Assembly: GCF_057098645.1 (NCBI RefSeq) | Contig: NZ_CM169472.1 | Strand: one strand, 5' to 3' | DNA length: 64,000 nucleotides | In this document: in pieces, positions 62,383-62,400 of the stretch | Numbering within the stretch: position 1 is the first letter of the stretch | How the letters are laid out: each line of letters starts with the position of its first letter | The notes under the pieces: model-generated | What the model was told of the DNA's origin: nothing | The model's input: only the letters and a program-made list of their open reading frames with translations | Databases searched by the model: none | Position numbers and translations under genes: made by a program

Positions 62383-62400
62383 TGTGTTATAACATAACCA
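62383..62400 (-). promoter_or_regulatory. putative Zur box in the ykgM promoter
   Basis: AT-rich palindrome tgtgttataacataacca centred on GTTATAAC just upstream of ykgM. Confidence 0.5.

Follow-up and report, generated by a model that had tools for sequence, protein, structure and literature searches.

The window, a 64,000-nt stretch of Escherichia coli DNA, carries ykgM and ykgO in tandem on the minus strand, in a region that is 99.9% identical to O145:H28 genomes. ykgM (62106..62369) encodes a type B, cysteine-free ribosomal protein L31 (NCBIfam NF002462, 122.7 bits against a cut-off of 86), and ykgO (61966..62106) encodes a type B ribosomal protein L36 (NCBIfam NF002021, 91 bits against a cut-off of 70). 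With both scores above the curated cut-offs and zero cysteines in the YkgM translation, these are the zinc-independent L31 and L36 paralogues that the original prediction took them to be, and together they constitute a C-minus L31/L36 paralogue operon. Control of ykgMO by Zur is the textbook example of exchanging zinc-binding ribosomal proteins for zinc-free ones. Like ykgM, ykgO begins with tandem ATGATG (62104-62109, minus); the ykgM TGA stop lies inside it (ATGATGA), so both possible ykgO starts overlap the ykgM stop, an arrangement typical of translational coupling.

In the closest O145 genome, ykgL (L001 1307-1532; window ~61706-61931, plus strand), a gene convergent with ykgO, carries an annotated frameshift. 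One biosensor RNA-seq study found ykgL induced alongside ykgMO under calprotectin (PMC12279244), which may reflect read-through or unstranded signal from the ykgMO transcript. Upstream of the operon, an IS2 element that is 100% identical to annotated IS2 copies runs from ~62769 to 64000, and similarity to O145 stops there. The small membrane protein gene ykgR would span 62733-62834 (minus) in related genomes; the IS2 insertion interrupts it, leaving only its last ~12 codons as a remnant at 62733-62768. This insertion lies ~340 bp upstream of the ykgM -35. The IS2 left end contains an 18-bp inverted repeat of its own, ATCACTTAAATAAGTGAT (62802-62819, 8/9 pairs), upstream of the first IS2 ORF.

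Read 5' to 3' on the minus strand, the region around the ykgM start is ...TTGAAAtgatccggatgagcatgTATCTTtatgGTTATGTTATAACACAACAGGtaaaaATGATGaagccc. At 62385-62394 (minus 62394..62385), TGTTATAACA is a perfect 10-bp palindrome. It sits within an 18-bp inverted repeat at 62381-62398, whose symmetry centre falls between 62390 and 62389 and whose two 9-nt arms, GTTATGTTA and TAACACAAC (minus, 62398..62381), have 8/9 complementary pairs and one non-complementary pair. The palindrome had originally been placed at 62383-62400; the sequence is present there, and the symmetric element itself is shifted by 2 nt. Its proposed position less than 20 bp upstream of ykgM holds, since 8 nt separate the end of the 18-mer from the first ATG and 11 nt separate it from the annotated one.

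Combining matrix, pattern, and direct reading, we place a 20-bp, two-dimer Zur operator, GGTTATGTTATAACACAACA, at 62380..62399 on the minus strand. The published two-dimer model for Zur operators uses the skeleton RxxxYRxxR*YxxYRxxxY (PMC4219657), and all eight of its R/Y positions are satisfied by direct reading of minus 62398..62381, GTTATGTTATAACACAAC. The promoter-proximal 13-mer, GTTATgttATAAC (RNNNYxxxRNNNY; 62386..62398, minus), is an exact match to GTTATNNNATAAC and would hold one Zur dimer; it shares its centre with the classical TGTTATAWTATAACA box, and its inner positions are invariant in 72/72 orthologues. The second 13-mer, GTTATaacACAAC (K-12: ...ATAAC; 62381..62393, minus), overlaps the first at an offset of 5 bp, matches GTTATNNNATAAC with one mismatch, and would hold the second dimer.

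Palindromy alone is at chance level, with 7 centres of at least 8/9 pairs in the window against 8.0 ± 2.8 expected. The element could accordingly be read as a chance AT-rich repeat or as the site of another Fur-family protein, for example Fur, with Zur control located elsewhere in the ykgM-ykgR spacer. A biosensor study in which the full intergenic region cut background by 68% provides a hint of extra upstream elements (PMC10410751) that would suit such a reading. A search for the Fur box GATAATGATAATCATTATC returned no match at up to three mismatches in the whole window, and the spacer at 62405-62770 holds no further Zur-like site, its best matrix score being 3.0 bits.

We trained a symmetrised position weight matrix (PWM) on the K-12 znuC (znuA/C), zinT, and pliG operators in a leave-one-out design from which ykgM was excluded; over 20 bp, these operators line up with the ykgM site in the same register. 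The ykgM site scores 20.5 bits and ranks first in the window, the next best match having 15.2 bits, and this score was reached by 0/200 random 64-kb windows. Known Zur operators held out of training score 21-25 bits. A matrix scan of this kind had been proposed as the check on the original prediction, and its outcome favors the assignment. Our first PWM, which used one orientation, was overfitted and gave the site only 16.5 bits, a value equalled by 12.5% of random windows; it was replaced by the symmetrised version. The second-best matches of the symmetrised PWM (15.2 bits; 14931-14950 and 14931-14976) fall in an AT-rich spacer adjoining an Hcp-family type VI secretion gene, and they are probably due to chance because their score lies within the random-sequence range.

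With up to two mismatches allowed, the structure-based Gilston 20-mer IUPAC pattern TGWNAYRWTATAWYRTNWCA has the ykgM site, which carries two mismatches, as its sole match in the window, compared to 0.12 expected. The R/Y skeleton by itself has very little specificity, matching the window exactly at 580 places. Against the classical odd-centred consensus sequences GAAATGTTATAWTATAACATTTC and AATGTTATAWTATAACATT, the site has 7/23 and 5/19 mismatches, respectively, figures that no other site in the window improves on, though they are not distinctive. The poor score against these 23-bp and 19-bp forms arises because the ykgM operator is symmetric about an even centre. By direct reading, 13 of the 15 positions of the core TGTTATAWTATAACA are matched when it is centred on 62392.

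We retrieved 80 ykgM loci from other Enterobacterales and Vibrio and used the 72 that contain GTTATAAC for conservation. Across these GTTATAAC-containing loci, the eight core bases are invariant and the immediate flanks nearly so, while the leader and spacer around them are variable. In 69/73 ykgM loci, 19-23 nt separate the box centre from the ATG; the E. coli spacing of 20 nt falls within this range, so that closeness to the start codon is the family norm. Nearly all of those loci have a single ATG, aligned with the second ATG of E. coli. The site lies upstream of Zur-regulon genes (type B L31/L36) and is conserved among their orthologues (72 loci). Invariance of the core over 72 species with variable flanks, the published EMSA on the L31p operator itself, and the lack of a Fur-box match or a spacer site together make a chance repeat or a Fur-type site extremely improbable, and we retain the assignment to Zur.

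The promoter scan found only one promoter-like match near ykgM, TTGAAA-17-TATCTT, with a predicted -35 hexamer at 62426..62431 and a predicted -10 hexamer at 62403..62408 (both minus). The same promoter is listed for ykgMO in an RpoD-holoenzyme (RNAP-RpoD) genomic SELEX data set (PMC3946193). Its geometry recurs in the other species: the TTG of the -35 is strongly conserved, the spacer is 17 nt in 63/72 loci, and a -10 of the form TAnnnT ends 12-13 nt before the box centre in 57/72. Since the operator always lies directly downstream of this conserved -35/17 nt/-10 arrangement, it covers the predicted transcription start. From the promoter and the orthologues, we infer a start zone at 62395..62398 (minus), ~7 nt past the -10 and in the left half of the operator, with the start itself predicted at ~62396. 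The operator is predicted to begin 4-5 nt past the -10, to span ~-2 to +16, and to end at the AGG, and it would overlap the predicted, conserved core promoter at +1. We found no experimentally mapped E. coli ykgM transcription start in the searchable literature, including the biosensor and L31p-regulation papers. A low Zur-matrix score and a start far upstream had been named as outcomes that would count against the original prediction, and our predictions point to neither.

The palindrome might instead carry the promoter, with TGTTATAAC (62394..62386, minus) serving as an extended -10, TGnTATAAC. Transcription would then start at ~62379 and yield a ~7-nt leader on a practically leaderless mRNA, translation would use the first ATG, and Zur would sit on the -10; this corresponds to the very short leader of the original prediction. 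By direct reading, TGnTATAAC fits the extended -10 consensus at 8/9 specified positions; TATAAC likewise occurs in the zinT operator, where its distance from a TTGCAT -35 would suit a -10, and Zur sites overlap the -10 according to the Y. pestis paper (PMC2706843). The internal TATAAC, however, ends in C and not in the near-essential T, and it has no -35 at 16-18 nt, whereas the better promoter TTGAAA-17-TATCTT lies just upstream of the operator, at a position conserved across genera and listed in SELEX. A start at 62379 would also lose the AGG Shine-Dalgarno, which is a poor fit with the very high derepressed expression of ykgM-lacZ. We therefore regard a promoter inside the palindrome as very unlikely and continue with TTGAAA-17-TATCTT as the ykgM promoter.

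A transcript from TTGAAA-17-TATCTT would probably have a leader of ~23-27 nt that consists mostly of operator sequence and includes the Shine-Dalgarno. It would be short because the transcription start falls within the operator, which itself follows the -10. The small distance between palindrome and gene had been taken to imply either a very short leader or use of the first ATG; a short leader is indeed probable, while a near-leaderless transcript and a requirement for the first ATG did not stand. In RefSeq annotations of near-identical E. coli genomes and of K-12, ykgM starts at 62369-62367 (MKPN, 87 aa), the second codon of the tandem ATG ATG at 62367..62372 (minus), immediately preceded by the in-frame first ATG at 62372-62370. 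Every E. coli sequence examined has tandem ATGATG, and the first ATG is replaced in E. albertii (AAAATG) and in a divergent Escherichia (L007; ATAATG).

An ATG at the preceding codon occurs in 2/72 loci from other species, the remaining 70 being without it. Because it is nearly absent from these loci, the second ATG is the homologous start, and homology favors the annotated second ATG of ykgM. By direct reading, a Shine-Dalgarno-like AGG at 62378..62380 (minus) touches or shares bases with the far end of the operator; 5 nt separate it from the first ATG and 8 nt from the annotated one. Either spacing is workable, so the first ATG may be used, but nothing implies that it is. As the operator-ATG spacing is a conserved architecture, it is uninformative on which ATG serves.

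The palindrome could also act as RNA, forming a 5'-terminal hairpin within the first ~20 nt that stabilises the mRNA or modulates ribosome access. The K-12 leader does fold into a 7-bp hairpin made from the operator arms (-6.4 kcal/mol), but this fold is no better than that of shuffled sequences (z = -1.1 for K-12 and z = +0.5 for the window allele), and the minimum-energy fold of the window allele no longer contains the operator-arm hairpin. Zur binding already accounts for the conserved arms, which therefore provide no independent covariation for an RNA structure. An Rfam scan of 61800-62900 returned only a chance-level folP match (20 bits against a gathering score of 99). We give a leader hairpin little credence and treat the palindrome as a DNA site for Zur.

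At 62384 the operator has a rare substitution: the plus-strand base is G (C on the minus strand), compared to A (T) in K-12 and O145. This change breaks the perfect 18-bp palindrome of K-12, GTTATGTTATAACATAAC, to give GTTATGTTATAACACAAC in the window, and over 869 bp nothing else separates the window from its closest complete genome, O145 RM9872. Using a 45-mer centred on 62384, we found the K-12 allele in 4,796/5,426 genomes and the window allele in 6, that is, 6 of ~4,800 complete E. coli genomes carrying the locus; none of the six is identical over the whole 45-mer. At the corresponding minus-strand position, the orthologous operators have T (43 loci) or A (29 loci) and never C or G (72 loci), and the base is T in the three strong E. 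coli operators. The variant costs 4.4 bits in our PWM, which is a small one. In the RNNNY skeleton this position is an unspecified "N", and it lies in the outer, less conserved arm of the second dimer site.

Judging from these sequence features, a modest effect of the substitution, or none, is most likely. A functional change, in which cooperative two-dimer binding would be weakened, the basal ykgMO level or the zinc threshold raised, and an antisense transcript perhaps abolished, seems to us unlikely. The variant is absent from the literature, and as a natural one-base change it could be used to gauge the share of the second dimer's outer half-site in very tight repression.

An antisense small RNA of 92 nt, ECS017 (AUAACCAUAAAGAUACAUGCUC...), has been reported at this locus (PMC3175480, supplementary file 4). 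Its 5' end falls at 62394 on the plus strand, inside the Zur operator, and the RNA runs across the ykgM promoter. A TATGTT-type hexamer (62383-62388) lies just upstream of this reported 5' end. In the window, the variant converts this -10-like TATGTT of the K-12 plus strand into TGTGTT.

Overall, we consider it very probable that zinc-loaded Zur represses ykgM-ykgO by binding this palindrome as its operator and that the palindrome overlies the start of the TTGAAA-17-TATCTT promoter. Its identity as a Zur operator, proposed in the original prediction, is borne out by the best matrix match, by the type B L31/L36 genes downstream, and by published Zur binding and repression in K-12. The expected repression of ykgM and ykgO by Zur has likewise been published for the K-12 sequence, which differs from the window by one base (PMC4219657, PMC7297116). 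The sequence, the Zur-matrix rank, the conservation, the conserved promoter geometry, and the gene identities come from the present analysis; Zur binding, its cooperativity, and the size of repression are taken from the literature on the K-12 allele.

We infer that Zur also binds the one-base variant and acts here by occlusion. Two Zur dimers would bind cooperatively to the overlapping 13-bp sites 62398..62386 and 62393..62381 (minus), which jointly form an 18-20 bp inverted repeat. The operator would lie on the transcription start and the first ~16 transcribed bases and reach the ribosome-binding site, and a ~30-bp Zur footprint would extend back into the -10. Bound Zur would block open-complex formation by RNA polymerase or promoter escape, keeping the operon silent when zinc is sufficient. 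Under zinc scarcity, Zur would leave, and a transcript with a ~23-27 nt leader could be made and translated from the AGG Shine-Dalgarno.

The Zur operator of ykgMO is already known and well characterised, and the original prediction read it correctly; what is added here is the conserved promoter/operator geometry across species and the rare natural operator variant. Its prediction upstream of L31p (ykgM) goes back to Panina 2003, as cited in PMC7297116 and PMC2706843. The ykgMO promoter is also already in use as a calprotectin/zinc biosensor (PMC10410751, PMC12279244). Among the four K-12 Zur operators, that of L31p is the tightest (Kd-app 0.025e-18 M^2), and the same study, whose EMSA used the L31p operator, reports 560-fold repression in vivo and a Zur footprint of ~30 bp (Gilston et al. 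2014, PMC4219657). Loss of Zur (zur::kan) or treatment with TPEN raises ykgM-lacZ expression ~1000-fold (PMC7297116).

The closest known system is the K-12 ykgM operator, which occupies the same locus and position. Its 20-mer is identical to ours at 19/20 positions, and the -35, -10, Shine-Dalgarno, and tandem ATGs are alike; the one substitution, at 62384 (minus T to C), separates the window operator from the K-12 allele to which the published binding data belong. The znuA/znuC, zinT, and pliG operators have the TATAACA core and the RNNNYRNNRYNNYRNNNY skeleton in common with the ykgM site. They differ from it in symmetry, with 10-12 self-complementary positions about the even centre compared to 16/18 in the window ykgM operator and 18/18 in that of K-12. 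By promoter prediction, the ykgM operator also differs from these three in its placement, immediately after the -10 and on top of the transcription start. In Y. pestis, the ykgM-rpmJ2 site is likewise a Zur box in a ykgM promoter, and we liken it to ours, across species, by its published description. In that work, DNase footprints combined with primer extension locate the Zur site on the -10 region, and repression is reported to occur by blocking RNA polymerase (PMC2706843, Li et al. 2009). The occlusion that we propose for the E. coli operator would be consistent with this Y. pestis ykgM footprint and primer extension.
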